This document shows positions 30,510 to 60,429 of a stretch of DNA of 64,000 nt, one piece after another. Source of the DNA: Hydrogenophilales bacterium 16-64-46. Lineage in GTDB: Bacteria; Pseudomonadota; Gammaproteobacteria; Burkholderiales; Thiobacillaceae. The first letter of the stretch is position 1; each line of letters opens with the position of its first letter. Position numbers and translations under genes: made by a program. Location: assembly GCA_002281775.1 (NCBI GenBank), contig NCGY01000003.1:112696-176695 (forward strand). The letters are read 5' to 3'. The notes beneath the pieces were generated by a model, which was given only the letters and a program-made list of their open reading frames with translations, ran no database searches and had not been told where the DNA came from.

Positions 30510-31542
<1,033 letters not shown>

Positions 31543-41105: not shown

Positions 41106-41110
41106 ATTTT

Positions 41111-41232
41111 AGGGGTCAGGATTCAGGGGGCAGGGGTCAGCGGGTTTTGTGCGGCGAAGCCGCGCTTGAATAAATGAAGGACCGCGTAGCGACAAGCATC
41201 CCTGACCCCTGAATCCCGACCCCTAGCCCCTG
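41111..41232. repeat. Heptamer-unit inverted repeat between glyA and nrdR
   Basis: AGGGGTC AGGATTC AGGGGGC AGGGGTC ... CTGACCC CTGAATC CCGACCC CTAGCCC. Confidence 0.75.
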
Positions 41233-50226: not shown

Positions 50227-53200
50227 TCACCCCGCCCGGTAGCGCCCGTCGGCCAAGCGCTGTGCCCGTCCAAAGTCCACCAGCGCATCGAGCAGCCCGG
50301 GCAGGGCTTTTTGCAGACCACGCGCCTTGTCGAAACCGGCAGCGAGTTCTGCAGGGGTTTGCGGCGCATCGCTGAGCAGGCGGGCGAGCGCGCCGAGCTG
50401 GTCGGGCAGTGCGGCGGGCCAGACAGGTTTGCGCGTGGCAACGGGCGCAATGGCGGGCGCGTCGGTGGCGGGCAGATCGAGTACGACGGTGGTATGAGCG
50501 GGTGCTTGGTACGCTGGGCGCAAAAAACGTACCTGGCCAGCGGCTTCTTCGGTGGCGCGCTCGGCGTTGAGGGCGACAAGACGTTCGAGCAGCGCGCTGT
50601 CGTCGGGCGCGTCGTCCCAGCCGTAGGCGGCCAGCACGGCGGCGTCGAGTTCGTCGTGCAGGGTGTTCAGCACGCCGACCAGGCCCTGCGTGTACACGGT
50701 TTTGTCTTTGGCGGTGAGCGGCTCGCCGGTTCGGAGTTTTTCCCGCACGTTGTACACGCCGGTGAGCGTCAGCTCCGGGTGCATGGCCTGCTGGCGCTTG
50801 CGGTGGGCGTCGAGGCGTTCGGCCAGGTCGCGGATCGTCGCCTGCTGGTCTGGGGTGGCGGCGGGGAAGGGGAATTTTTCGAAACACACGCCCTTGTTGT
50901 AGCGCGGGTCGTTACCAACTCCCAGCCGCCCACCCGCCGCCAGCGCCCAGGCAACATGCACGCGCGAGGACAGCACGCCCAGCATCCAGGCGTCGTCGTG
51001 GGCGATACAGACGAGCATGTTGTCGGGCGCGATGGCGGCGTCGAGAAACTGGAAGACGCGGTGTTTCGCGGTTTCGACGGTGGCGATGTAGCGCGGCAGG
51101 CCGGTGAACATTTTGCGGAGTTCGCGACGCGGCTCGCCAAACAGCCACCAGTTGTCGCGGTAGGTCGCGCGCTGGTTGTGATCGCGTTCGGGTTTCACGC
51201 GGTCTAAAAGCCATTGCCAGACGGTGGGGTACTGCGCGCGCAACGTGGCTTCATCGTAACCCCAGGCGTCGATGACGAGCACGCCGCGCGGTTTGTCGGT
51301 GATGTCGCGGCCGTTGCGGTAGGGGCGGATGAGTGCGGGCGCGGCCAGTTCAGCAGCCTCGTCGGGGGTGACGATGAAGCCCGCGCCGTGGAGTTTAAAA
51401 CCGGGCGAGCTGATGTTCCCGTTCGCCCGCAACGCCACCGCTGCCGCGACGTTGGCACCGACGCGCAAGTTCGCATGGATCGCGCCGCTGCGTTCGGCGA
51501 GTTCGACATCGATCTCGCCGTCCGTCCCCGGGGTTTCGCGGCTGACGGCGAGGAGCCGCCCGTCGCCCGCGCCGGGCGCGGCGACGGTCATCGCCACGCG
51601 CACGGCCGCGCCGTTGGCTTCGTCCACCCAGGGGTGGTCGGCAATGGCCCAGGCCAGGTGCAGCGCATCCAGATGCTGTTCCAGCACCCGTCGGTTGAAG
51701 GTTTGCGTGAGGCTGTTGGTGGTGATGAAGCCGAAGCGGCGAATTTTGTTTTCGCGCAGCAACCGCGCGGCGTGATCCCACCAGAACATGACGAGGTCGG
51801 CGGACTCGGGCACGCCCGGGTGCGTCTGCCGCAGGGCATCGACGTAACCGTCGCCGAGCGCCTGCCGCAGGGTGGACGCGCCGATGAAGGGCGGGTTGCC
51901 GACGACGAAGTCGGCAGCCGGCCAGACGGCGGCGTGCGGGTCGAGATAGCGCACGACGGCGGCGCGGGCGGATTCGTCGGGCACGGGCTTGCCGGTGACG
52001 GGGTGCGGTTTGAAGCTGACGCCGTCCCAGCGGGTGAGCGGCTGGCCGGCTTCATCCTGCACGGCTTCGATGCGGCGCCAGTCGAGCACGGCGTCGCGGC
52101 ATTCGATGTTTTTGAAATCGCGCAGCACCGGCGTGGGCGGCAGGGCGTGGCCACGGTTTCTGAAGTGCCATTGCAGATGGCCGATCCATAACACCAGCTC
52201 GGCCACCGCTGCGGCGCGCGGGTTGCGTTCCAGCCCCAGGAATTGATGCGGATCGACGGTGAGGCCTTCGGTGTCGAGTTCCTGTTGTTGCATGGTGCCG
52301 TCTTTGCTGGCCGCGCTTTGCAGCGCACCCAGCAGTTCGAGCACTTCGGCTTCGAGCCGTTTCAGGTGTTCCAGCGCCACGTAGAGAAAGTTGCCGGAAC
52401 CGCAGGCGGGGTCGAGCACGCGGGTGGCGCACAGGGTCTGGTGAAAGCCGCGCGCGAGTTTGAGCGCAGCGGCGGCGTCGCCCCGATCCATGAGCGCGAG
52501 CGCGGCGGTCTGCACGTTGAGCCAGTCGGCGCGCAGCGGTTCGACCAGCGTGGGCAGCACCAGGCGTTCGACATAGGCGCGCGGGGTGAAGTGCGCGCCC
52601 AGCGCGTGGCGCTCGGCGGGGTCGAGTGCGCGCTCGATGAGCGTGCCGAAAATGGCGGGTTCGACGTGCTTCCAGTCGGCGCGGGCGGCGGCGAGCAGGG
52701 TTTCGAGCTGGGGGCGGGTAAGTTCCAGCGCGACGGGAATCTTGAACAGCTTGCCGTTGAAGTGGGGAATGGTTTTGCGCAGCGCGACGGAATAGCCGCC
52801 GCTGTCCATTTTTTGCCAGAGTTCTTCGATGCTGGGCTTGAACGAGGCGGGCTCGACACAGGCGGCGACGACGATGTCGGTGAAGCCGCCGGCGGGCAAG
52901 AGGCCGACGTCTTCGGCAAACATGGTGAAGAGGCAGCGGGTGAGGAAACCGGCGACGGCGTGCGGTTCGTGATCGGCTTCGAGGCCGCGCGCGAGCTGGC
53001 CGAGATGCGCGGCGACTTCGCGGGTGACGCGGGCGGCGATGCGCGCGGGGTCGAGCGCGGCAGGCTCGGTGAAAACCCGTTTGAGTCGGTCGCGCACGGC
53101 GTCGTGCGCGAGGTCGGTGATGGCGATGCGATAGCTCGCCCGATCCGGAAAATATTCGTAGCTGCGGTCGTTGTCGCGGAATTGGGCGTAGAGCGCAATG

Positions 53201-53586
53201 AAGCGCCCGACGTTGGCGACCATGAGAAATACCGGACGCGGCTCGGACGCGGGAAGGTTGCGCGCGTAGCTTTCGGCCTGCGCCTTGGCCTTGATGAGCT
53301 TGTTGGCGGCGGCGTCCAGATCGCGACCGAGGTGAAAGCTCTTGGATTCGCAGATGAAATGGCCGCGCTTGTAGGTGTCGATGAAGCGCGCCGCGCCCGC
53401 GCCGGATTCGTCGAGCGCGTCGATGTGGCGCTCAAAGACGTAGGCGTTGTCTGCGTCGTTCGCCTGCGCGGGCAGGGGTTTGTCCACCCCGAGCAGTTCG
53501 CACAGGTCGTTGAAAAAAAGCTGGTAGTTGGCGCGCTCGCTGCCGGATGCGCCGTTCCATTTGGCGATGAAGGACTGCGGGGTCAT
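50227..53586 (-). CDS. Single-chain restriction-methylase, MmeI / Type IIL-IIG like
   Basis: N-terminal D...ExK (FIDTYKRGHFICESK), HFTPRAYV, VLDPACGSGNFL, GNPPFIG, TRD-like C-terminal half; start at MTPQSF. Confidence 0.88.
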   Translation of the reverse strand: MTPQSFIAKWNGASGSERANYQLFFNDLCELLGVDKPLPAQANDADNAYVFERHIDALDESGAGAARFIDTYKRGHFICESKSFHLGRDLDAAANKLIKAKAQAESYARNLPASEPRPVFLMVANVGRFIALYAQFRDNDRSYEYFPDRASYRIAITDLAHDAVRDRLKRVFTEPAALDPARIAARVTREVAAHLGQLARGLEADHEPHAVAGFLTRCLFTMFAEDVGLLPAGGFTDIVVAACVEPASFKPSIEELWQKMDSGGYSVALRKTIPHFNGKLFKIPVALELTRPQLETLLAAARADWKHVEPAIFGTLIERALDPAERHALGAHFTPRAYVERLVLPTLVEPLRADWLNVQTAALALMDRGDAAAALKLARGFHQTLCATRVLDPACGSGNFLYVALEHLKRLEAEVLELLGALQSAASKDGTMQQQELDTEGLTVDPHQFLGLERNPRAAAVAELVLWIGHLQWHFRNRGHALPPTPVLRDFKNIECRDAVLDWRRIEAVQDEAGQPLTRWDGVSFKPHPVTGKPVPDESARAAVVRYLDPHAAVWPAADFVVGNPPFIGASTLRQALGDGYVDALRQTHPGVPESADLVMFWWDHAARLLRENKIRRFGFITTNSLTQTFNRRVLEQHLDALHLAWAIADHPWVDEANGAAVRVAMTVAAPGAGDGRLLAVSRETPGTDGEIDVELAERSGAIHANLRVGANVAAAVALRANGNISSPGFKLHGAGFIVTPDEAAELAAPALIRPYRNGRDITDKPRGVLVIDAWGYDEATLRAQYPTVWQWLLDRVKPERDHNQRATYRDNWWLFGEPRRELRKMFTGLPRYIATVETAKHRVFQFLDAAIAPDNMLVCIAHDDAWMLGVLSSRVHVAWALAAGGRLGVGNDPRYNKGVCFEKFPFPAATPDQQATIRDLAERLDAHRKRQQAMHPELTLTGVYNVREKLRTGEPLTAKDKTVYTQGLVGVLNTLHDELDAAVLAAYGWDDAPDDSALLERLVALNAERATEEAAGQVRFLRPAYQAPAHTTVVLDLPATDAPAIAPVATRKPVWPAALPDQLGALARLLSDAPQTPAELAAGFDKARGLQKALPGLLDALVDFGRAQRLADGRYRAG

Positions 53587-53915
53587 GGGGCGGGAGGGTC
53601 TTCGCACAGCCAGGCTGGCAGATCGCGCTGCGCGTGAAGAATGCGCCAGACGTCGATGTGGTCTGGCCGCTCGACATAAAAAACCATGTAGGGGAAGCGT
53701 TTGAGCGGCCATACACGCAAGCCCGGCAAACCCAATTCGTGGTCGAAGCGCGACGATCCTGCCGCGGGGTGGCGGGCAAGCTGAGCGATGGCGCGTTCGA
53801 GCGCGTCGAGAAAAAGCCGGGCAGCATCGGGCGCATTCTGCGACCGATACCAGTCGATCACGGTTTCGGTATCGCGTGTGGCGATCCGTCGCGGTACGAC
53901 GGGTTTGACGCTCAC
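53583..53915 (-). CDS. ParE/RelE family toxin
   Basis: ATRDTET..DWY...HPAAGS...RVWPLKRFPYMVFY...RILHAQRD. Confidence 0.9.
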   Translation of the reverse strand: MSVKPVVPRRIATRDTETVIDWYRSQNAPDAARLFLDALERAIAQLARHPAAGSSRFDHELGLPGLRVWPLKRFPYMVFYVERPDHIDVWRILHAQRDLPAWLCEDPPAP

Positions 53916-54148
53916 CCGCGCGGCGCGTCAATGCGCTGGCGCAAGACTTCGAAATAGGCCGCGTCGGCGGGGCGATCCGGCGCGGAAGCCGCACCTTCGA
54001 GCAGCAAGGCCCGCAGGTTCTGGCGCTCCTGATCTTTGCGGATCAGCTCGCGCATGTATTCGCTGCTGGTGCCGTAGCCGCGTTCAGTGACCTGATTATC
54101 GACAAAAGCCTTGAGTGAATCCGGCAGGGAAATATTCATTGTGCTCAT
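53912..54148 (-). CDS. ParD/CopG RHH antitoxin
   Basis: MSTMNISLPDSLKAFVD...YGTSSEYMRELIR. Confidence 0.9.
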   Translation of the reverse strand: MSTMNISLPDSLKAFVDNQVTERGYGTSSEYMRELIRKDQERQNLRALLLEGAASAPDRPADAAYFEVLRQRIDAPRG

Positions 54149-54155
54149 GGGCGGG

Positions 54156-54184
54156 ATACTAGGCATGTTGGCAAAATTTGGCAA
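54156..54184 (-). promoter_or_regulatory. Sigma70 promoter of parDE-RM operon, probably leaderless
   Basis: TTGCCA-N17-TAGTAT, 7 nt before the ATG; TTGCCAA occurs twice (possible RHH operator). Confidence 0.6.
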
Positions 54185-54202
54185 TAGCAGGTCAGAGGCA
54201 GG

Positions 54203-54325
54203 TCAGGTAAATAGCGCGGTGATCAGCCAGAGCACGCCGAATCCGATCAGCAGGATTGCGATTCCCAGCGCGAGACCTTCAAACGCGCCTTTGGCGATTG
54301 CTACATAAAAATTGTCTTTATCCAC
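54203..54325 (-). CDS. 40-aa single-pass membrane protein, not in ORF track
   Basis: GTG start with AAGGA upstream; MDKDNFYVAIAKGAFEGLALGIAILLIGFGVLWLITALFT. Confidence 0.55.
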   Translation of the reverse strand: MDKDNFYVAIAKGAFEGLALGIAILLIGFGVLWLITALFT

Positions 54326-54393
54326 AGAAAATCCTTGATTGCGGGTTATGGGGGAGTTACCTCAGGCTACAAGGGCGCGTTCGCGCTGCGGTG

Positions 54394-56268
54394 TCAAACC
54401 GCCTCCCCGCTGACCACGCATTCCAGCCGATCCCACGGCAGTCGCTCGGGCTGGGCGCGGGCGAAGCGGCAGACCAGCGCCTCGCCCGCATCCAGCCGCC
54501 GCGCGATATTGATGTTGAACGGACGCGGCAGGTAGCCGAGTTTGCGGCCTTGCCAGGCGACGAGCACGGCAAGCGGGTCGTGGGGGTTGTCGGGCTCGCG
54601 CACGAGTTCGAGCAGCTGGCCGGGCGTGAGGCGGGTTTCCAGCGCTGGATCACGGTTGTAGGCATAACCGGTGATGTGGGAGAACAGCAGCGCGCCCGCA
54701 GGCAGAGGCGGGTTGCGCCGCGCGGCGATCCAGGCCAGCGCGCGGCTTAGGCGGCGCTCGCTTTCGGCGTCGAGGCGCAGGGCGGGCGGACGACAAGGGG
54801 TGTCGCTGACGGTGTCCCGCCAGTGCCCGAGACGCACGCGCTGCGGGCGCAGCTCGGGGGCGTTGAGATGGATTTCCACTTGCTGCGCGAACAGCTCCAT
54901 GAGATAGCCCGCGTCGGCATTGCACGGGCCGCGCAGTTGCACGAGTTTGAAATGCAGGTCGTCGCCCCGCTGCTGGATGTCGTACTGCGCGGTGGCGCGC
55001 CCGCCTTTGGGCAGGGTGAGCGAGACGATGCGCGTGTCACCTTCGGCGATGTCGTCCCAGTAACTGGCGACGCAGTGGTGCAGGGCATCGCCTTCGTCGG
55101 CGAGTGTGTCGTAGTCGAGTAGCTCGCGCGCGATGCTCAGATTGCGGTCGAGCACGCCGAAAAGTGCGGGGACGGGGATATCCCGCGTCGGCACGATAGC
55201 AGTCTGGCGCGGGTGTCGGTGCCAGCGCACCGAGGCGTCGAGCAGTGACGTCAGGCCGTGACGCGCGAGCCAGGCGTGGCCGAGCGTTGCGTCGTCGCCG
55301 TCCAGGTTGGCGTCGAGTTCGAGCGCACGGGCCATGGCGACGCGCAGAAAATCGCGGCAGTCGTCGATGGCATTGCCGAGGGGATTGAAGCGCGCTTCGA
55401 GCGCGGTCCACAGCGCAGCCCAACCTGGCTTGAACAACGTGGCGGCCAGTTCGAGCAGGGCGGGTTCGCCGACCAGGCGTTCGAGCGCGGCGACATAGGG
55501 CGCGCCACGTTCGAGTTCGGCCCGGCTCGCCGGGCGCGCGTGGGCGGGAATGCGGTCGAGCAGCTGCACCATGCGCGTGTGCGCGATGCCGAGATCGCCC
55601 CACATTTCGCTGCACACCGGCGCGCGCACCAGGCTGCGCGAAACACCGTAATGCGCGGCGAGCACGCCGGCGAGATCGCGCCCCTGCAACGCGGCATCGA
55701 CCACCTCGTCGTCGTGATCGCGCCAGGCGAAACGCTTGCCGCCGCAGGTGTCGGTCGCGTGGTGCGCGGTGAGCAGGATCGGTGCGGCGAGCACGGGAAA
55801 CCGCTCGACCGCCTGTTGCCGCCGGCGGCCTTCTTCGCCTGATACGAGCCGGTTGTAATTGCGGCACGAACTCCAGAAGCGGTGCGCGTCGAGCCGGGCA
55901 AGGCATTCGAGTATGCCCTGGTCGAGCCCGGCGGCGAAACGCCGTGCCTCGGCGTGTCTGGCATGGCCCCAGGCGAGCGCGGGCATCGGCGCGGCAGGCG
56001 CGGCGTAGAGCACGATGGGGAGGAGGAGAGCGCGAGGCACGTCCACTTCGAGCACCTCGCCGCGCGCATCATCGGCAATGCCTTCGACGATGGCGGGGAT
56101 CAGCGCGTCGTCGCCGAGCAAATGCGCTGCGAGACGAAAGGCAAGCACCCGCCCGTCGGCCAGATGCAGCCACAGCAGCGCCGCTTCGGTGGCTTCGCCG
56201 TATTCGCGCGTGGTGAGCCACAGGCGTGCGCGGACGGCGTTACAGGTCGCAGTCATCGTCGCCGCCAA
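54394..56268 (-). CDS. PcfJ-like domain protein with C-terminal HIRAN domain
   Basis: LADEGDALHHCVASY...VQLRGPCN (PcfJ-like); LVREPDNPHDPLAV...KLGYLPR (HIRAN); start may be 56256. Confidence 0.78.
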   Translation of the reverse strand: MAATMTATCNAVRARLWLTTREYGEATEAALLWLHLADGRVLAFRLAAHLLGDDALIPAIVEGIADDARGEVLEVDVPRALLLPIVLYAAPAAPMPALAWGHARHAEARRFAAGLDQGILECLARLDAHRFWSSCRNYNRLVSGEEGRRRQQAVERFPVLAAPILLTAHHATDTCGGKRFAWRDHDDEVVDAALQGRDLAGVLAAHYGVSRSLVRAPVCSEMWGDLGIAHTRMVQLLDRIPAHARPASRAELERGAPYVAALERLVGEPALLELAATLFKPGWAALWTALEARFNPLGNAIDDCRDFLRVAMARALELDANLDGDDATLGHAWLARHGLTSLLDASVRWHRHPRQTAIVPTRDIPVPALFGVLDRNLSIARELLDYDTLADEGDALHHCVASYWDDIAEGDTRIVSLTLPKGGRATAQYDIQQRGDDLHFKLVQLRGPCNADAGYLMELFAQQVEIHLNAPELRPQRVRLGHWRDTVSDTPCRPPALRLDAESERRLSRALAWIAARRNPPLPAGALLFSHITGYAYNRDPALETRLTPGQLLELVREPDNPHDPLAVLVAWQGRKLGYLPRPFNINIARRLDAGEALVCRFARAQPERLPWDRLECVVSGEAV

Positions 56269-56476
56269 ACAGGCTGAACAGTCCGCCGATACCCAGAAGC
56301 AGCAGGGGGAAAGCCAGGATCAGCCAGAGCGCCGCGAGAAGAAAAATGATGAAGATCCCCCAGAACACCAACTTGGCAGTGAACAGGGGGGCGACCTGAA
56401 ACATGCTGAAGCCGATAACGCCGATGATGGCCGCCCAAAGCCACTCGGCGTCCGAATATTGTCTGGGTGTTTTAAT
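56240..56476 (-). CDS. ~78-aa hydrophobic membrane protein without canonical start, not in ORF track
   Basis: KTPRQYSDAEWLWAAIIGVIGFSMFQVAPLFTAKLVFWGIFIIFLLAALWLILAFPLLLLGIGGLFSLFGGDDDCDL*; ATT 7 nt after AGGAG, or ATG shifted by one extra A. Confidence 0.5.
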   Translation of the reverse strand: MKTPRQYSDAEWLWAAIIGVIGFSMFQVAPLFTAKLVFWGIFIIFLLAALWLILAFPLLLLGIGGLFSLFGGDDDCDL

Positions 56477-56519
56477 TTTTCATCTCCTGATGCAAGAGGT
56501 TTGATCATCGTGCGGCAGG

Positions 56520-56538
56520 CGATCAAAAACTGATCGGG
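56520..56538. promoter_or_regulatory. Palindromic site copy 1, candidate WYL-regulator site
   Basis: CGATCA-AAAAC-TGATCG-GG; 18/19 identical to 58964-58982. Confidence 0.65.
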
Positions 56539-56591
56539 AGCCGGCAGGTTGGGCAAAATATCAAGTTGCTGGAGACGCAATAGGCTAGGCC

Positions 56592-57665
56592 TTGAGCGGC
56601 GAATCCACCCTGGCCGACTTCCGCCGCGACTTTCTCGCCACGGTGGAAAAACAGGGCTGGAAGGACTTCACCGGCGACGACCGTGCCACGCAGGGCCGCA
56701 CCGGCGGGCGCGGGCTGGCTTGGCGCACCCGCACCATCTACCAGACCAACATCGCCGCCAGCTACGCCGCCGGGCGCTGGCAGCAACTCAACGCCCCCGA
56801 CCTGTTGGCCGCCCGCCCCTACTGGCGCTACGTGCATTCGGATTTTGTCGGCAACCCGCGCCCGCGCCACAAGGCATGGGGCGACAGCGGGCTGACCCTG
56901 CGCCACGACCATCCCTTCTGGAAAACCCATTTTCCGCCCAACGGATGGGGTTGCCGGTGCAGCGTCAAGGCCGTGCCCGCGCCGAAGGACGGCGACGCCA
57001 CCGCGCCGCCGGTCGGCTGGGATGCGCGAGACGGCAAGGGGCGTCTGCCGGGGATCGACAGGGGTTGGGATTACGCGCCGGGAGCGACATGGAACCCTTG
57101 GGACAGGCTGGCAGGGCTGCCCGATTGCGATGGACTGGCAGCGTTGGCGGCGGGCGGGCCGTGTATCCCTAAGGCAGGCAGGCAGCCTGCTGACTGGCGT
57201 TCGGAGCAGCGTCCCGATCTGCGCGATGTTCCGCCAGTATTGCGCTTGCCGTCGCCGCCCTTGTTACCGAAGGCAAAAGACCGCAGCGAGGCGGTCGAGA
57301 TGCTGGCGCAGGCGTTGGGGATTTCCTCCGCCAACCCCTACCGGGTGGTCGATACTCCATGGTATGGCATGGTTCCGCTCGCCTACGAGAGGCTGCCGCA
57401 TATGGTGGGCAAGGAAAGGGATGCGCGGGAGCGTTACGCGAATTTCATTTTGCCGACGCTGATGCAGCCGTATGAAATATGGGAAACCGCCTACGCGGAC
57501 GGGACAACGCGACCGCGCTTCATTGGTCTATTTGACGGCCCCGCGCAAGTGATGGTGGTCGTTAGAATCGACCGTGACGGCCGGGTATTCTGGAATTACA
57601 TGCAGGCGAAAAACAAGGACATGAATGCCCACCGCGAGGGGGTCAGCCTGGTCTATCGTAAATGA
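56592..57665 (+). CDS. Phage Mu gpF-like (MuF) protein, N-truncated, with C-terminal BECR/PBECR2-like nuclease domain
   Basis: IYQTNIAASYAAGRW, RPYWRY, HPFWKTHFPPNGWGCRC (MuF); HMVGKERDARERYANFILPTLMQPYEIW...FIGLF...FWNY C-terminal domain. Confidence 0.75.
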   Translation: MSGESTLADFRRDFLATVEKQGWKDFTGDDRATQGRTGGRGLAWRTRTIYQTNIAASYAAGRWQQLNAPDLLAARPYWRYVHSDFVGNPRPRHKAWGDSGLTLRHDHPFWKTHFPPNGWGCRCSVKAVPAPKDGDATAPPVGWDARDGKGRLPGIDRGWDYAPGATWNPWDRLAGLPDCDGLAALAAGGPCIPKAGRQPADWRSEQRPDLRDVPPVLRLPSPPLLPKAKDRSEAVEMLAQALGISSANPYRVVDTPWYGMVPLAYERLPHMVGKERDARERYANFILPTLMQPYEIWETAYADGTTRPRFIGLFDGPAQVMVVVRIDRDGRVFWNYMQAKNKDMNAHREGVSLVYRK

Positions 57666-57668
57666 TGG

Positions 57669-57767
57669 AAACGCTCCGGGGTCCCGTTCCGCGCGCCTGT
57701 CGGTGCGCCGGAGCCCTTCCGCCGGGTATTGAGCCGACACTCACCCGGGTTCGCGCCCGGAGCGTTT
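57669..57767 (+). ncRNA. Candidate structured RNA directly after the MuF-nuclease gene
   Basis: Perfect 12-bp closing stem AAACGCTCCGGG/CCCGGAGCGTTT, two internal hairpins, TGTCGG/CCGACA complementarity between them. Confidence 0.55.
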
Positions 57768-57786
57768 GAGCAAAGGATAGCAAACA

Positions 57787-58272
57787 ATGGCACTGCTGCA
57801 AATTGACATAGACGACCGAGCCGTGCTCGACGTGCTGGCCAAACTGGCGAAGCGCGCGGGCAACCTCGCACCGGCGCTGACCCAGATCGGCGAAGAATTG
57901 CGCGATTCGACCCAGCGCCGCTTCGCCACCGGCACCGGCCCGGACGGCCAGCGCTGGGCACCCAACAGCCAGACCACGCTGCTGCGTTACCTGGGCAGCA
58001 AGGATCGCCCCGGCGGGCTGTTCGGCAAGCGCGACGGCAAATTGACGAAAAAAGGCGTGGGCGCGGCGCTGGGCAAAAAGCCGCTGGTGGACAGCGGCAC
58101 GCTGGCGAGCACGATCAATTACCAGTTGGCCGATGGTGGGCGCACGCTGCTGGTGGGTAGCAAGGCTCAGGAAAAGCTGATAACGATGCCAAGCAGAACA
58201 AGTACCACAAAAGCCAGCAATCCAAGCTGGACGACAAACCATAGGGTATTGAAGACGGCGTCCAAGAGCTGA
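57787..58272 (+). pseudogene. Phage virion morphogenesis protein (Mu gpG-like), 3'-truncated near 58161
   Basis: IGEELRDSTQRRF...PDGQRW...PLVDSGTLASTI...LLVGS, after which similarity stops where the convergent gene ends. Confidence 0.75.
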
Positions 58273-58940
58273 GCGGCTGGCGTAGGTGAATTGCAGAAGC
58301 GGGGTACGCCGTCGAAAACTGGGCGGTGCCGGGTGTGCACACTGTCCAGTTTGTCGAGTGCCTCCAGCATGTCGTCTTGGCTGAGCGTTTTGATCCGTGC
58401 AAGGAATAGGTGTAGCTCGGGCGATGCCGTCAGGGTAAGGCAAGTTTCAATTTCCAATACGGGATGCCTATCGTTCCACAGCCCGCGCGCTTCGAGCACA
58501 GCGCGTGGCGCAGCAAGAACGGCAAGGAGTTCGTCGAGCCAGGTGAGGATTTCGCGCAGGGTGTGGGTATAGGCGGCGGGCAGCAGGTGACGGGCGTCGT
58601 GCGTGAGCGGGGGTGAGACGATGTGCGCTGCGGCGGCACGGCCTTCGATCAGGCGGTCGATTTCAGCTTCGAGGAGGGCGACGGCACGATGGGCGTCGGC
58701 CTCGCTGGCGTTCGGGTTGGCCAGCACGTCGCCATTCGTGTCGTTCAGCCGCTGTGTGATGCGGGCGGCAATGTTTTCGAACGTATCAAGGTGTTGTTGC
58801 AGCGTGACGGAGGCATCCACTGGATTCGTGCGCTTAGTCCGAGCGGAAGAGCTAGTGAGTTCGGCCCGCAGCCGTTCGGCAAGGCGGGTGAGCGCGTTGC
58901 CGAAGGCGATGAGTCGAGGCGGCAGGGTGAAGTCGGTCAT
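58167..58940 (-). CDS. Hypothetical helical protein with C-terminal TM anchor
   Basis: 257-aa ORF ending LWFVVQLGLLAFVVLVLLGIVISFS. Confidence 0.7.
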   Translation of the reverse strand: MTDFTLPPRLIAFGNALTRLAERLRAELTSSSARTKRTNPVDASVTLQQHLDTFENIAARITQRLNDTNGDVLANPNASEADAHRAVALLEAEIDRLIEGRAAAAHIVSPPLTHDARHLLPAAYTHTLREILTWLDELLAVLAAPRAVLEARGLWNDRHPVLEIETCLTLTASPELHLFLARIKTLSQDDMLEALDKLDSVHTRHRPVFDGVPRFCNSPTPAAQLLDAVFNTLWFVVQLGLLAFVVLVLLGIVISFS

Positions 58941-58960
58941 GCTGCCAGTTTGTACCGATT

Positions 58961-58983
58961 ACCCGATCAAAACCTGATCGGGT
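58961..58983. promoter_or_regulatory. Palindromic site copy 2, candidate WYL-regulator site
   Basis: Perfect ACCCGATCA-AAACC-TGATCGGGT between the WYL stop and the next ATG. Confidence 0.7.
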
Positions 58984-58991
58984 GACGGCAA

Positions 58992-59960
58992 TCAGTTGTA
59001 GCGCGCGAGGCTTTCCGACAAACGGCGTTTGACCCATTCGCGCAGGTCGGCGGGCGCGACGACTTCGACTTCCGGCCCGTATTTGAGGATGTCCATGACG
59101 AGTTCGGTGGGGTTGCCGTAGGGCACGGCCAGCTCGTAGCTGCCGTCGATGAGGAAGTGGCCGCTTTGTTCGCGGTGCCAGCGTTCATCGGCGACCCAGC
59201 GCGCGGCATTGGCAGAAAACCGCAGCACAGCGGTGTGGCGGGCGCTACCCGAGAAGATGCCGTAGGCGCTGGCGTAATGCGCATTTTGAGTGGCTTCGTC
59301 TACTGCAATGGCGGCCTCGGGGCGGCGCTCGGGGGCTTCGATGCGGTCGAGCGAAAAGCTGCGCAGACCGTTGCGCAAATGACACCAGGCGTCGAGATAC
59401 CAGTTGCTCTTGTACCAGGCCAGCCGCAGAGGCGAAACGGTACGGCGTGCGTGGTCGTTGCGGATGCGACCGCGATAGGTGAAGGCCAGTTGTTGACCGT
59501 CGGCGAGCGCGCCTGCGACGGCGCGGAATACGCTGTCATCGACTTTGCGCGCGGCGAGTGCGATGAGTTTGACGCGCTGGCGAAGCTGGCCACCGCCGGG
59601 CTGGCGCTGTTCGAGCAGGGCTTCGAGGCGTTTGACCAGCGGTGCGATTTCCTCGCCGAGCAGGCCGGGCTCGACTTCGGATAACCATTGGTGCGCCGCC
59701 AGCAGGGCGTGGAGTTCGGACGCGGAAAACCACAGGCCGGGGAGTTCGTAAGTTGTTTCTTCGTTCTGTTCGTAGACCCAGCCGCCGCGCGCGCGATCAA
59801 AACGCACCGGCGCGCCGAGCTCGTCGCGCAGTTTGGCGATGAGACGCCGGACGGTGGGTTCGGAACATTCGAGCTTCTGTATCAGTTCGTGGGTGGTGAC
59901 GGGCGTGCGCCGCCCGGCGAGGAAACCATGCAGATCGTAGAGGCGGTCGAATTTGTTCAT
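58992..59960 (-). CDS. HTH-WYL regulator, YafY/DriD/PafBC type
   Basis: ELIQKLECSEPTVRRLIAKLRDELGAP; VSPLRLAWYKSNWYLDAWCHLRNGLRSFSLDRI; start at MNKFDR. Confidence 0.92.
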   Translation of the reverse strand: MNKFDRLYDLHGFLAGRRTPVTTHELIQKLECSEPTVRRLIAKLRDELGAPVRFDRARGGWVYEQNEETTYELPGLWFSASELHALLAAHQWLSEVEPGLLGEEIAPLVKRLEALLEQRQPGGGQLRQRVKLIALAARKVDDSVFRAVAGALADGQQLAFTYRGRIRNDHARRTVSPLRLAWYKSNWYLDAWCHLRNGLRSFSLDRIEAPERRPEAAIAVDEATQNAHYASAYGIFSGSARHTAVLRFSANAARWVADERWHREQSGHFLIDGSYELAVPYGNPTELVMDILKYGPEVEVVAPADLREWVKRRLSESLARYN

Positions 59961-59973
59961 GCGCCGGATGCGT

Positions 59974-60429
59974 TCATGCGTGGCAGACGAAATCCAGTGG
60001 GTAGCACCGTCCGGCGAGCGCGTCCTGTACGCAGCGCAGGACCAGCGGGCTGCGATGCGGCACGGAGTGGGTGGCGAGTTCTTCCGGCGTGAGCCAGAGC
60101 GCACGCACGATACCGGTGTCCAGCGTGCGGTCCGGCTCGAAACCGGCAAGGTCGCAAAGGTAGGCGAAGCGCAGGTAGGTGATGTCACGGCGCGCGGAAC
60201 GCGTGGAGTAGCAGCCGAGCAGCGCCGTAGGTTCGACGCGGTGCGCGGTTTCTTCCAGCGCTTCGCGGCGCACGGCTTCGATGAGCGTTTCGCCGCGCTC
60301 CCAGTGGCCGGCGGGCTGGTTCAGGCGCAGGCCGTCGGCGGTTTCTTCTTCAACAAAGAGAAACCGGCCGTCACGCTGAACGAGTGCAGCAACGACGACA
60401 TGCGGCAGCCAGGTTTGCGCATCAGACAT
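59974..60429 (-). CDS. nudJ: NUDIX hydrolase NudJ
   Basis: LFVEEE...NQPAGHWERGETLIEAVRREALEET; rluE-nudJ order. Confidence 0.88.
   Translation of the reverse strand: MSDAQTWLPHVVVAALVQRDGRFLFVEEETADGLRLNQPAGHWERGETLIEAVRREALEETAHRVEPTALLGCYSTRSARRDITYLRFAYLCDLAGFEPDRTLDTGIVRALWLTPEELATHSVPHRSPLVLRCVQDALAGRCYPLDFVCHA

Follow-up and report, generated by a model that had tools for sequence, protein, structure and literature searches.

Genes for MuF toxins usually precede small open reading frames (ORFs) that are putative immunity genes (PMC5576092). The PBECR domains of polyvalent and MuF proteins have been predicted to be delivered with the virion and to act on RNA, with host mRNA or CRISPR RNA as the proposed targets, and no RNA gene or immunity factor associated with them was described (Iyer et al., 2017, PMC5512222). 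Such proteins raise the question of how phages packing an RNase-tipped MuF protein spare the cell that produces them, and of how lysogens resist related phages. To our knowledge, no immunity partner or target of a PBECR domain is known. The locus considered here lies in a stretch of 64,000 nucleotides (nt) from Hydrogenophilales bacterium 16-64-46 (assembly GCA_002281775.1, contig NCGY01000003.1, positions 112,696 to 176,695), hereafter called the window, in which a gene for a MuF protein ending in a PBECR2 domain is directly followed by a structured RNA element. Comparison with homologous loci, referred to by number (L001, L002, etc.), indicates that this element is a new RNA family, widespread among the Mu-like prophages of Proteobacteria, Nitrospirota and other groups, whose structure of three-way junction and kissing loops is well supported, whatever the function may be. 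The explanation that best accounts for the whole, a linked structured small RNA with its own promoter and an immunity-like role, is advanced here at only slightly below an even chance.

The RNA Element and the Gene It Follows

A preliminary description of the locus had noted, after the stop codon of the MuF gene, a 99-nt element closed by a stem of 12 base pairs (bp) and holding two hairpins with a TGTCGG/CCGACA match between them; each of these parts was found again at the same coordinates (Table 1). The three-way junction made by the closing stem (P1) and the two hairpins (P2 and P3) is the minimum-free-energy fold of the element. Taken singly, the window sequence is marginally unusual: its fold has z-scores against shuffles of -1.94 (plus strand) and -2.28 (minus strand), and P1 is one of only eight places in the 64-kb window where an inverted repeat of 12 nt or more falls within 120 nt. 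It is because homologues show the same architecture after PBECR2, with strong covariation, that the element goes beyond chance, and covariance models match it with 108-121 bits.

The domain upstream had been taken for PBECR2 fused to MuF, and the Pfam comparison bears this out. PBECR2 (PF18810) matches amino acids (aa) 259-353 at E 3.6e-15 over profile positions 23-117 of 120, and its 56.7 bits lie above the curated gathering score of 27.1; the homologue in L002 reaches 55.9 bits. Phage_Mu_F (PF04233) matches aa 45-125 at E 7.8e-10, over profile positions 35-111 of 112 only, and the protein is assigned to PHROG 220, 'minor head protein and DNA pilot'.

The covariance models of Rfam 15, which include ribozymes, riboswitches, Mu-gpT-DE and YrlA, gave no match at the element up to E 10 in the window or up to E 1 in 10 homologous loci, and a scan for tRNA and tmRNA genes with ARAGORN returned none in the window and in 13 loci; a tRNA-like nature, as first suggested, thus finds no match in either. 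On the plus strand P1 is followed by GAGCAAAGG, with no U-run, and a terminator scan called nothing at the element. Three further candidates were rejected. A possible second copy, a weak model match at 30947-31060 of the window, falls within recA and is due to chance; an integron attC-like site would need R'/R'' core sites, which are absent, and the fold is a three-way junction; and a readthrough or frameshift signal is contradicted by the reading frames, G not being in a frame reachable from F and frame 0 stopping after 43 codons.

Conservation of the Fold

Base pairing was counted in an alignment (A5) of 29 distinct sequences that had been fitted to the model, and in it 85.3% of the pair cells form standard pairs, compared with 34-40% when partners are slid. 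Changes on both sides were seen in 27 of 28 pairs, and none of 500 shuffles reached the observed values. Sequences of P1, whose length across the family is 9-15 bp, are wholly different between subgroups with their complementarity kept. The single-stranded junctions are conserved as well, reading GTCYCG, CCYTWMNG and WWTCKCK on the plus strand. The proposed kissing or pseudoknot contact between the hairpin loops is upheld, one subgroup excepted, by complementarity that covaries in at least nine sequence versions (TGTCGG/CCGACA, TGCTGG/CCAGCA, TGTTGCG/CGCAACA, CATGGGC/GCCCATG, GCCTACG/CGTAGGC, CAGGA/TCCTG, CAAGA/TCTTG, CCAGA/TCTGG and CTGGG/CCCAG). As judged from these alignments, covariation demonstrates that the RNA fold is conserved.

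The pattern of substitution also bears on whether the element is read as something other than RNA. A small protein might be encoded by a 35-codon ORF running from an ATG at 57662 to a TGA at 57767-57769, its ATGA overlap with the F stop looking like translational coupling in the window, and open frames span the element in many GC-rich homologues; alternatively, the element might be a recombination or cassette-junction site acting as DNA, lying as it does at the edge of an exchanged cassette. The frames, however, differ or are interrupted between homologues, the same frame ends elsewhere in L002, and across the element the homologues share neither a frame nor a start codon nor a peptide, so that the small-ORF reading was rejected. 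Moreover, the substitutions are those of pairwise covariation and are not codon-like, and a predicted promoter precedes the element. A small protein or a DNA site is accordingly regarded as very improbable.

Distribution and Linkage to PBECR2

The same element follows PBECR2 in the close relatives L002 and L017, and when metagenomes were scanned with an alignment of PBECR2, 31 loci came up, nearly all with a homologous element at the stop codon. Two covariance models were made, R1 from five close sequences and R2 as the second-round model, and R2 found 33 elements in 45 loci (267 kb), every one of them immediately behind the stop codon of a PBECR2 gene. No R2 match was obtained where the MuF gene ends in another C-terminal domain (L001, L003-L011), and the intergenic regions following such genes (L001, L003-L010) are different. 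When the search was made from the RNA side with the junction pattern, 22 viral contigs were recovered; eight score 67-99 bits with R2, and all eight have PBECR2 immediately upstream, the 14 pattern-only matches being without PBECR2 or an R2 score. In reference genomes, a strong adjacent R2 match accompanies 20 of 40 PBECR2 loci, and these 20 belong to Beta-, Gamma-, Delta- and Epsilonproteobacteria, Nitrospirota, Magnetococcales and a cyanobacterium. The other 20, mostly of low-GC lineages, have a divergent element of about 100 nt with a long stem closing at the stop codon; the L087, L103 and L109 groups are such low-GC variants. Cultured candidate lysogens with an intact copy are Desulfovibrio falkowii 13CB8C (L092), Thauera sp. 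2A1 (L096) and Desulfovibrio sp. SGI.169 (L089).

A test independent of any model gave a similar picture: a perfect inverted repeat of at least 8 bp, starting from the stop codon and spanning about 92-110 nt, is present in 41 of 61 distinct PBECR2 flanks and at 39 of 305 control positions. With this repeat test, the model matches and the covariation, the claim that a real RNA structure is conserved in the 3' flanks of homologues is substantiated. In most loci the start of P1 falls between -3 and +14 nt relative to the stop codon, which P1 often includes. The element is retained at solo PBECR2 genes and where another gene lies downstream (L018, L034, L046, L053); the RNA is tied to PBECR2 specifically, and neither to MuF in general nor to the downstream gene G. 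Together, the sequence comparisons establish that the element immediately follows the stop of PBECR2 at about 60 loci of prophages or phages, and that it occurs nowhere else.

Among 50,697 GenBank phages, tblastn detected no PBECR2 of the window kind, and the window's own sequence, used as query against the viral contigs in protein and DNA searches, found nothing. Two other patterns were discarded: the exact outer-stem pattern matched only unrelated Leptolyngbya repeats in reference genomes, and a loose loop-motif pattern gave 11 chance matches in coding regions of unrelated phyla.

Some individual loci have peculiarities of their own. In L117 (2809-4466), the 5' half of the RNA follows the PBECR2 stop and the model match lies about 1.5 kb further on, and the RNA gene seems to have been split by an insertion. 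L017 is a 1051-nt Logan contig with a PBECR2-RNA-G fragment whose two ends (1-29 and 1023-1051) each match part of a CRISPR repeat of 37 nt (Rfam CRISPR-DR9, ending ...ATTGAAAC); the contig probably arose by chimeric assembly across two spacers targeting the phage, a very long insert between CRISPR repeats being less likely. L018 has a small plus-strand ORF (685-891; 68 aa, starting GAAAGGAAACGCCATGCAAGCC) between the RNA and the next gene, without a Pfam match, which could encode protein immunity or a moron.

Probable Strand and Predicted Promoter

At helix positions flanked by Watson-Crick pairs, the plus-strand mismatches comprise 43 A·C or C·A, 11 G·U and 14 others, counts that are not phylogenetically independent and are estimated to reflect about 20 versus 7 independent events. 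Since an A·C on the plus strand is a G·U on the minus strand, this excess points to the minus strand. The minus strand also folds more stably in 24 of the 29 sequences, by a mean of 2.6 kcal/mol, and the RNAalifold consensus is -33.2 (minus strand) versus -29.1 (plus strand).

Between the element and G lies an (A)GTATAG box which, read on the minus strand, is a -10 hexamer (TATACT, TATAAT, TACAAT or TATCCT), with a TTGAC(A/T)-like hexamer 16-18 nt upstream of it. Surveyed at a score of at least 8 of 12, with A2 and T6, a minus-strand promoter 3-13 nt before P1 was predicted in 36 of 44 distinct sequences, the same being true of 5% of shuffles and of 2 of 46 sequences on the other strand. The -35 of relatives is TTGACT or TTGACA, and in L040 a standard scan calls TTGACT-17-TATTAT at the homologous place. 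These hexamers are not a by-product of the G coding sequence, because in several loci they fall in non-coding DNA. Two plus-strand interpretations were dismissed: the TATAG box as a promoter or Shine-Dalgarno sequence, as it is separate from the Shine-Dalgarno in several loci and reads as a -10 hexamer with a TTGAC(A/T) box 16-18 nt away on the minus strand only, and TTTCGCG of the junction J3/1 as a -35, as its spacing is inconsistent (12-27 nt).

The element is thus likely, as far as these signals can be read from DNA, to be a separate small-RNA gene opposite MuF-PBECR2, with its own sigma70-type promoter, a predicted start a few nt before P1 and an end around the last codons of F. With such a promoter, the RNA could be expressed in lysogens independently of the late operon. 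The plus strand assumed earlier, on which the RNA would be the 3' untranslated region (UTR) of the toxin mRNA, is probably not the functional one, wobble asymmetry, fold energies and the sigma70-type promoter all favouring the opposite strand. Some 40 nt past the element, at 57607-57630, the conserved KNKDMN codons of PBECR2 contain a minus-strand terminator-like hairpin with UUGUUUUUCG. In this lineage the minus-strand RNA could end there, but the count of such hairpins is not above that in shuffles.

A function on the plus strand would make the fold a cis element of the late mRNA: a 3' stabiliser, a processing site, an attenuator or terminator-like structure, or a site at which PBECR2 cuts in autoregulation. 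That strand is certainly transcribed, terminating ribosomes must melt P1 where it sits so close to the stop, as it does in most loci, and a phage BECR RNase, RegB, cleaves phage mRNAs (PMC5512222). Yet no U-run follows P1 on the plus strand, the A·C mismatches that so exceed G·U there are not tolerated in RNA helices, the fold energies favour the minus strand and the conserved promoter faces the other way. A plus-strand cis element is considered distinctly unlikely.

Cassette Exchange and Sister MuF Loci

The MuF gene of L002 has an L001-type C-terminal domain followed by an L001-type intergenic region; further on lies a displaced PBECR2 fused in frame to the first 15 or so codons of G, then the PBECR2 RNA and an intact G. 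This layout shows a single mobile unit made up of the domain, the RNA and the beginning of G, where the -35 box lies. Both exchange and orphan modules, as expected of polymorphic-toxin cassettes, are found, and the intergenic region switches along with the C-terminal domain. Comparison of these loci thereby demonstrates inheritance of the RNA with the PBECR2 domain as one cassette. The L002 MuF ORF itself is broken at GWGC|...|CRC by an insertion of about 940 nt, through which the frame stays open and which has an ORF for a helix-turn-helix (HTH) protein on the other strand; an intein or a mobile insertion could account for it.

Another chromosomal remnant, independent of the first and situated by glyQ (L057-L059), has 43 codons from the end of PBECR2, then the RNA, which is intact and scores highly, together with the -10 box, and a G damaged by an internal deletion; it is about 94% identical between metagenomes. 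Between L057 and L059 the identity of 97% in the RNA versus 90-94% in the flanks is uninformative as to purifying selection.

Other MuF genes are followed by other things. The F protein of phage Mu carries an inactive PBECR-type domain (PMC5512222), and its F and G genes overlap with no RNA between them. Small plus-strand ORFs come after F instead where the domain is ART or peptidase-like (L004, L009), which fits the usual toxin-immunity pattern of MuF genes (PMC5576092). Cloverleaf-like minus-strand RNAs, with an acceptor-like stem, a GGTTCGAATCC-type arm and a TATACT -10 box before them, follow the MuF genes of L007 and L010, the C-terminal domains of which are of other, unassigned kinds; the RNAs' fold energies on the minus versus plus strand are -47 vs -31 and -46 vs -32 kcal/mol, and neither ARAGORN nor Rfam calls them. 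A -10 box and structured intergenic regions are found in L001, L003, L005, L006 and L008 too.

The PBECR2-linked element could in principle be an independent moron that merely hitch-hikes beside the domain, acting in trans as a decoy for a host RNA-targeting defence, as a mimic of a PBECR2 substrate such as tRNA, or as a self-cleaving ribozyme. It has its own predicted promoter, neighbouring MuF cassettes have tRNA-like RNAs, and a three-way junction with a loop-loop contact and conserved nucleotides at the junction is a typical feature of ribozymes and decoys. The strict one-to-one linkage to PBECR2 across classes of Proteobacteria, Nitrospirota and a cyanobacterium argues instead for a functional tie to the protein, and no Rfam ribozyme or tRNA matches. 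An independent decoy or ribozyme is therefore quite improbable.

Proposed Function

The next ORF after the toxin gene, at 57787, is the Mu G-type virion morphogenesis gene, and the initial remark that no immunity ORF follows is correct; most homologous loci likewise lack a protein immunity ORF between F and G. It is proposed that the small-RNA gene of about 100 nt, its product folded as a three-way junction with two kissing hairpin loops and a closing stem, fills the role that a protein immunity gene has in other MuF polymorphic-toxin cassettes, and that the RNA would neutralise the PBECR2 RNase by binding to it, either in the producing cell or in a lysogen that a related phage attacks. This assignment as immunity counterpart is a tentative one, held at somewhat less than even confidence. 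More speculatively, phage-delivered MuF RNase toxins in general might be neutralised, in place of immunity proteins, by dedicated, constitutively transcribed structured RNAs that are matched to the domain (the PBECR2 RNA here, tRNA-like RNAs elsewhere) and exchanged with it as cassettes.

The RNA would, by its position, be fully complementary to the 3' UTR of F, and prophages are known to have convergent RNA antitoxins that overlap the 3' end of the toxin gene, such as txpA/RatA and bsrG/SR4. The minus-strand RNA might hence act in cis as an antisense, in the manner of type I systems, pairing with the F-G intergenic region of the late mRNA and leading to RNase III cleavage or a block of F or G; the hairpins would then start loop-loop pairing as in CopA/CopT or RatA/txpA. 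Both the general scheme and this detail are judged unlikely. The predicted convergent promoter is in keeping with them, and conserved structures on both strands would suit the mixed G·U and A·C picture. On the other side, the conserved junctions, the intramolecular kissing contact and the closing stem are superfluous for a pure antisense, the tRNA-like minus-strand RNAs in the L007 and L010 intergenic regions suggest recognition by shape, the remnants in L057-L059 keep the RNA despite a destroyed toxin ORF, and the toxin is not a small membrane peptide. Antisense silencing of the toxin mRNA is seen as less likely than neutralisation of the RNase.

Several points weigh against the neutralisation of PBECR2 by an RNA gene of its own, besides the dependence among mismatch counts and the fitting of the alignment to the model. 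The function is putative and drawn from sequence comparison, and the RNase activity of PBECR2 is itself a prediction (Iyer et al., 2017, PMC5512222). The promoter in the window (TTTGCA-17-TATCCT, 57802-57774) is weak, scoring 8 of 12 and falling below the threshold of a stricter scan. After P1 on the minus strand, at least five U in 8 nt are found in only about 15 of 45 homologues, and so few clear U-tracts leave the 3' end of the RNA poorly marked. The plus strand, which is certainly transcribed within the late mRNA, can form nearly the same fold. One subgroup (L037, L039, L043, L045, L051) is without loop-loop complementarity, and the extra small ORF after the RNA in L018 and L034, of the CAGGA/TCCTG subgroup, could be a protein immunity gene. 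Finally, we know of no demonstration that PBECR2 is toxic.

If the RNA is an inhibitor, it would add an RNA-based mode of immunity to the biology of polymorphic toxins, extend RNA-antitoxin architectures beyond ToxIN-like repeats, and provide a natural RNA-protein pair of defined fold for structural work. Domain-matched neutralisation, if true, would amount to a new class of RNA immunity gene for polymorphic toxins with a new antitoxin architecture, and there is a real chance that the PBECR2-linked RNA represents such a class.

The Window Locus

The features of the locus and of the related loci are collected in Table 1. Homology to Mu-like prophages is limited to a segment of 1.57 kb, the blastn alignments with L001, L002 and other loci stopping at both of its borders. 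Since the homology is so confined, F lacks its N-terminus, G is truncated and the neighbours are unrelated, this segment is a prophage remnant, which retains an intact PBECR2 reading frame, the RNA element and the sequence just past it. Past the end of homology, the G ORF continues through unrelated sequence to 58272.

Full-length relatives of the MuF protein have 440-480 aa, and the window F is short by some 90-100 N-terminal residues; its MuF domain is incomplete, and no portal gene is present upstream in the window. By comparison with homologues, which are complete elsewhere, the window copy is a truncated remnant. Its TGA stop is at 57663-57665. The ATG at 57324, preceded by GAGG, is the first in-frame Met of the ORF, and a start there, as judged by alignment, would possibly yield a solo PBECR2 the size of solo homologues. 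In an alignment of the domain from 18 sequences, His70 (LPHMV) is nearly invariant and RERYAN, E95, W97, N135 and R148 are invariant; active PBECR domains have a His within their N-terminal helix, along with a polar, conserved residue on a late strand (Iyer et al., 2017, PMC5512222). An AlphaFold model of the domain from four sequences had a pLDDT of 48, too poor for a fold search or for placing catalytic residues, and a sequence search of the PDB with the domain found no relative.

The remnant is surrounded by an island of defence and mobile-element-type genes (window 50227-60188). A 27-nt direct repeat, 89% identical between its copies (56520-56546 and 58964-58990; CGATCAAAAMCTGATCGGG...), flanks the remnant and the 257-aa ORF. 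Since both copies are found immediately upstream of minus-strand gene groups, beside the WYL regulator, the repeat might represent an operator or a promoter region that was duplicated. The window's longest nearby inverted repeat, at 41110-41225 (TAGGGGTCAGGATTCAGGGGGCAGGG), has 26-nt arms that are 92% complementary and 64 nt apart, and is unrelated to the element.

Table 1. Coordinates of the RNA element, of the genes around it and of features in related loci (positions are those of the window unless a locus is named).
Feature	Position	Strand	Basis or remark
Conserved structured RNA, three-way junction	57669..57767	probably minus	folds, covariance model, covariation, strand evidence
Closing stem P1, perfect 12 bp	57669-57680 (AAACGCTCCGGG) / 57756-57767 (CCCGGAGCGTTT)		sequence
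Hairpin P2 (hairpin A)	about 57686-57714		sequence, fold
Hairpin P3 (hairpin B)	57722-57748		sequence, fold
P2-loop half of kissing/pseudoknot contact, plus-strand TGTCGG	57698..57703		complementary to 57734-57739, covaries
P3-loop half of kissing contact, plus-strand CCGACA	57734..57739		complementary to 57698-57703, covaries
Predicted -10 TATCCT, 6 nt upstream of minus-strand P1 start	57774..57779	-	sequence and promoter survey
Predicted -35 TTTGCA, 17-nt spacer, inside first codons of G	57797..57802	-	promoter survey
MuF-PBECR2 ORF, N-terminally truncated, 357 codons from TTG	56592..57665	+	Pfam; MuF aa 45-125, PBECR2 aa 259-353
Possible internal ATG start (GAGG before), solo PBECR2 of ~113 aa	57324..57665	+	aligns with start of solo homologue P0003
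Mu-like prophage remnant, 1.57 kb: F 3' part, RNA element, G 5' part	56597..58162	+	blastn borders
Mu G-type virion morphogenesis gene, 5' part, ~125 codons	57787..58162	+	Pfam Phage_tail_S, matched only over 1-79 of the 148 profile positions
MmeI-like type IIG restriction-modification enzyme	50227-53994	minus	neighbour unrelated to prophage
PcfJ-like+HIRAN protein	54394-56268	minus	upstream neighbour, unrelated to prophage
257-aa ORF of no assigned family	58167-58940	minus	downstream neighbour
WYL/WCX HTH regulator	58992-60188	minus	downstream neighbour
Tandem MuF C-terminal cassettes	L002:2522-5357		L001-type domain, then displaced PBECR2 module
glyQ-side remnant	L057:1652-2300, L058, L059:2423-3136		partial PBECR2, RNA, damaged G
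tRNA-like minus-strand RNAs after MuF genes with other C-terminal domains	L007:5048-5145; L010:5024-5100	minus	folds

Relationship to Known Systems

As conserved structured RNAs with an end-closing stem in a Mu-like head-gene context, the Mu-gpT-DE motif of Rfam and the bacterial Y-RNA-like YrlA resemble the present element, a likeness that extends to its tRNA-like sisters in L007 and L010; the element differs from both in position, fold and gene association, and no Rfam model matches it. The domain of the window protein is a bona fide member of PBECR2 in the sense of the PBECR domains of Iyer et al. (2017, PMC5512222).

With the type III toxin-antitoxin (TA) systems (ToxIN, CptIN, TenpIN) the locus shares a toxin of endoribonuclease type (here a predicted one), an adjacent, compact, pseudoknot-like non-coding RNA and residence on mobile elements, and direct neutralisation of protein by RNA is the mechanism proposed for it as well. 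The type III antitoxins, however, consist of tandem repeats that lie upstream of the toxin gene and run in its direction, and they are processed by the toxin, which has the ToxN/AbiQ fold, whereas here a single RNA of about 100 nt lies downstream, probably on the opposite strand and with its own promoter, and the toxin candidate is a BECR-fold domain on a virion protein. Co-transcribed direct repeats upstream are what defines the type III layout; at this locus the element is single-copy and downstream, and no repeats were found, so it is not a canonical type III system, although the proposed neutralisation would resemble the action of a type III antitoxin.

The resemblance to the type I TA systems of Bacillus prophages (txpA/RatA, bsrG/SR4) lies in a convergent, prophage-borne small RNA with its own promoter and complementarity to the 3' end of the toxin transcript, the convergent promoter here being predicted from sequence in 36 of 44 homologues. 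In the type I systems, the toxin is a small hydrophobic peptide, and the RNA acts by pairing and needs no conserved three-way junction with an internal kissing contact; the candidate toxin here is a soluble RNase-type domain of about 110 aa on a protein of 357-480 aa.

The MuF toxin/immunity cassettes (Jamet et al., 2017, PMC5576092) have, like this locus, a variable C-terminal toxin domain on a conserved MuF trunk. In those cassettes, as in the orphan arrays of C-terminal toxin and immunity modules of contact-dependent inhibition (CDI) and Rhs systems, the linked determinant comes directly after the domain and is swapped along with it, and the displaced module of L002 is the counterpart of such an 'orphan' cassette. 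What sets the present locus apart from the MuF toxin/immunity cassettes is that the linked determinant is an RNA gene and not a small immunity ORF.

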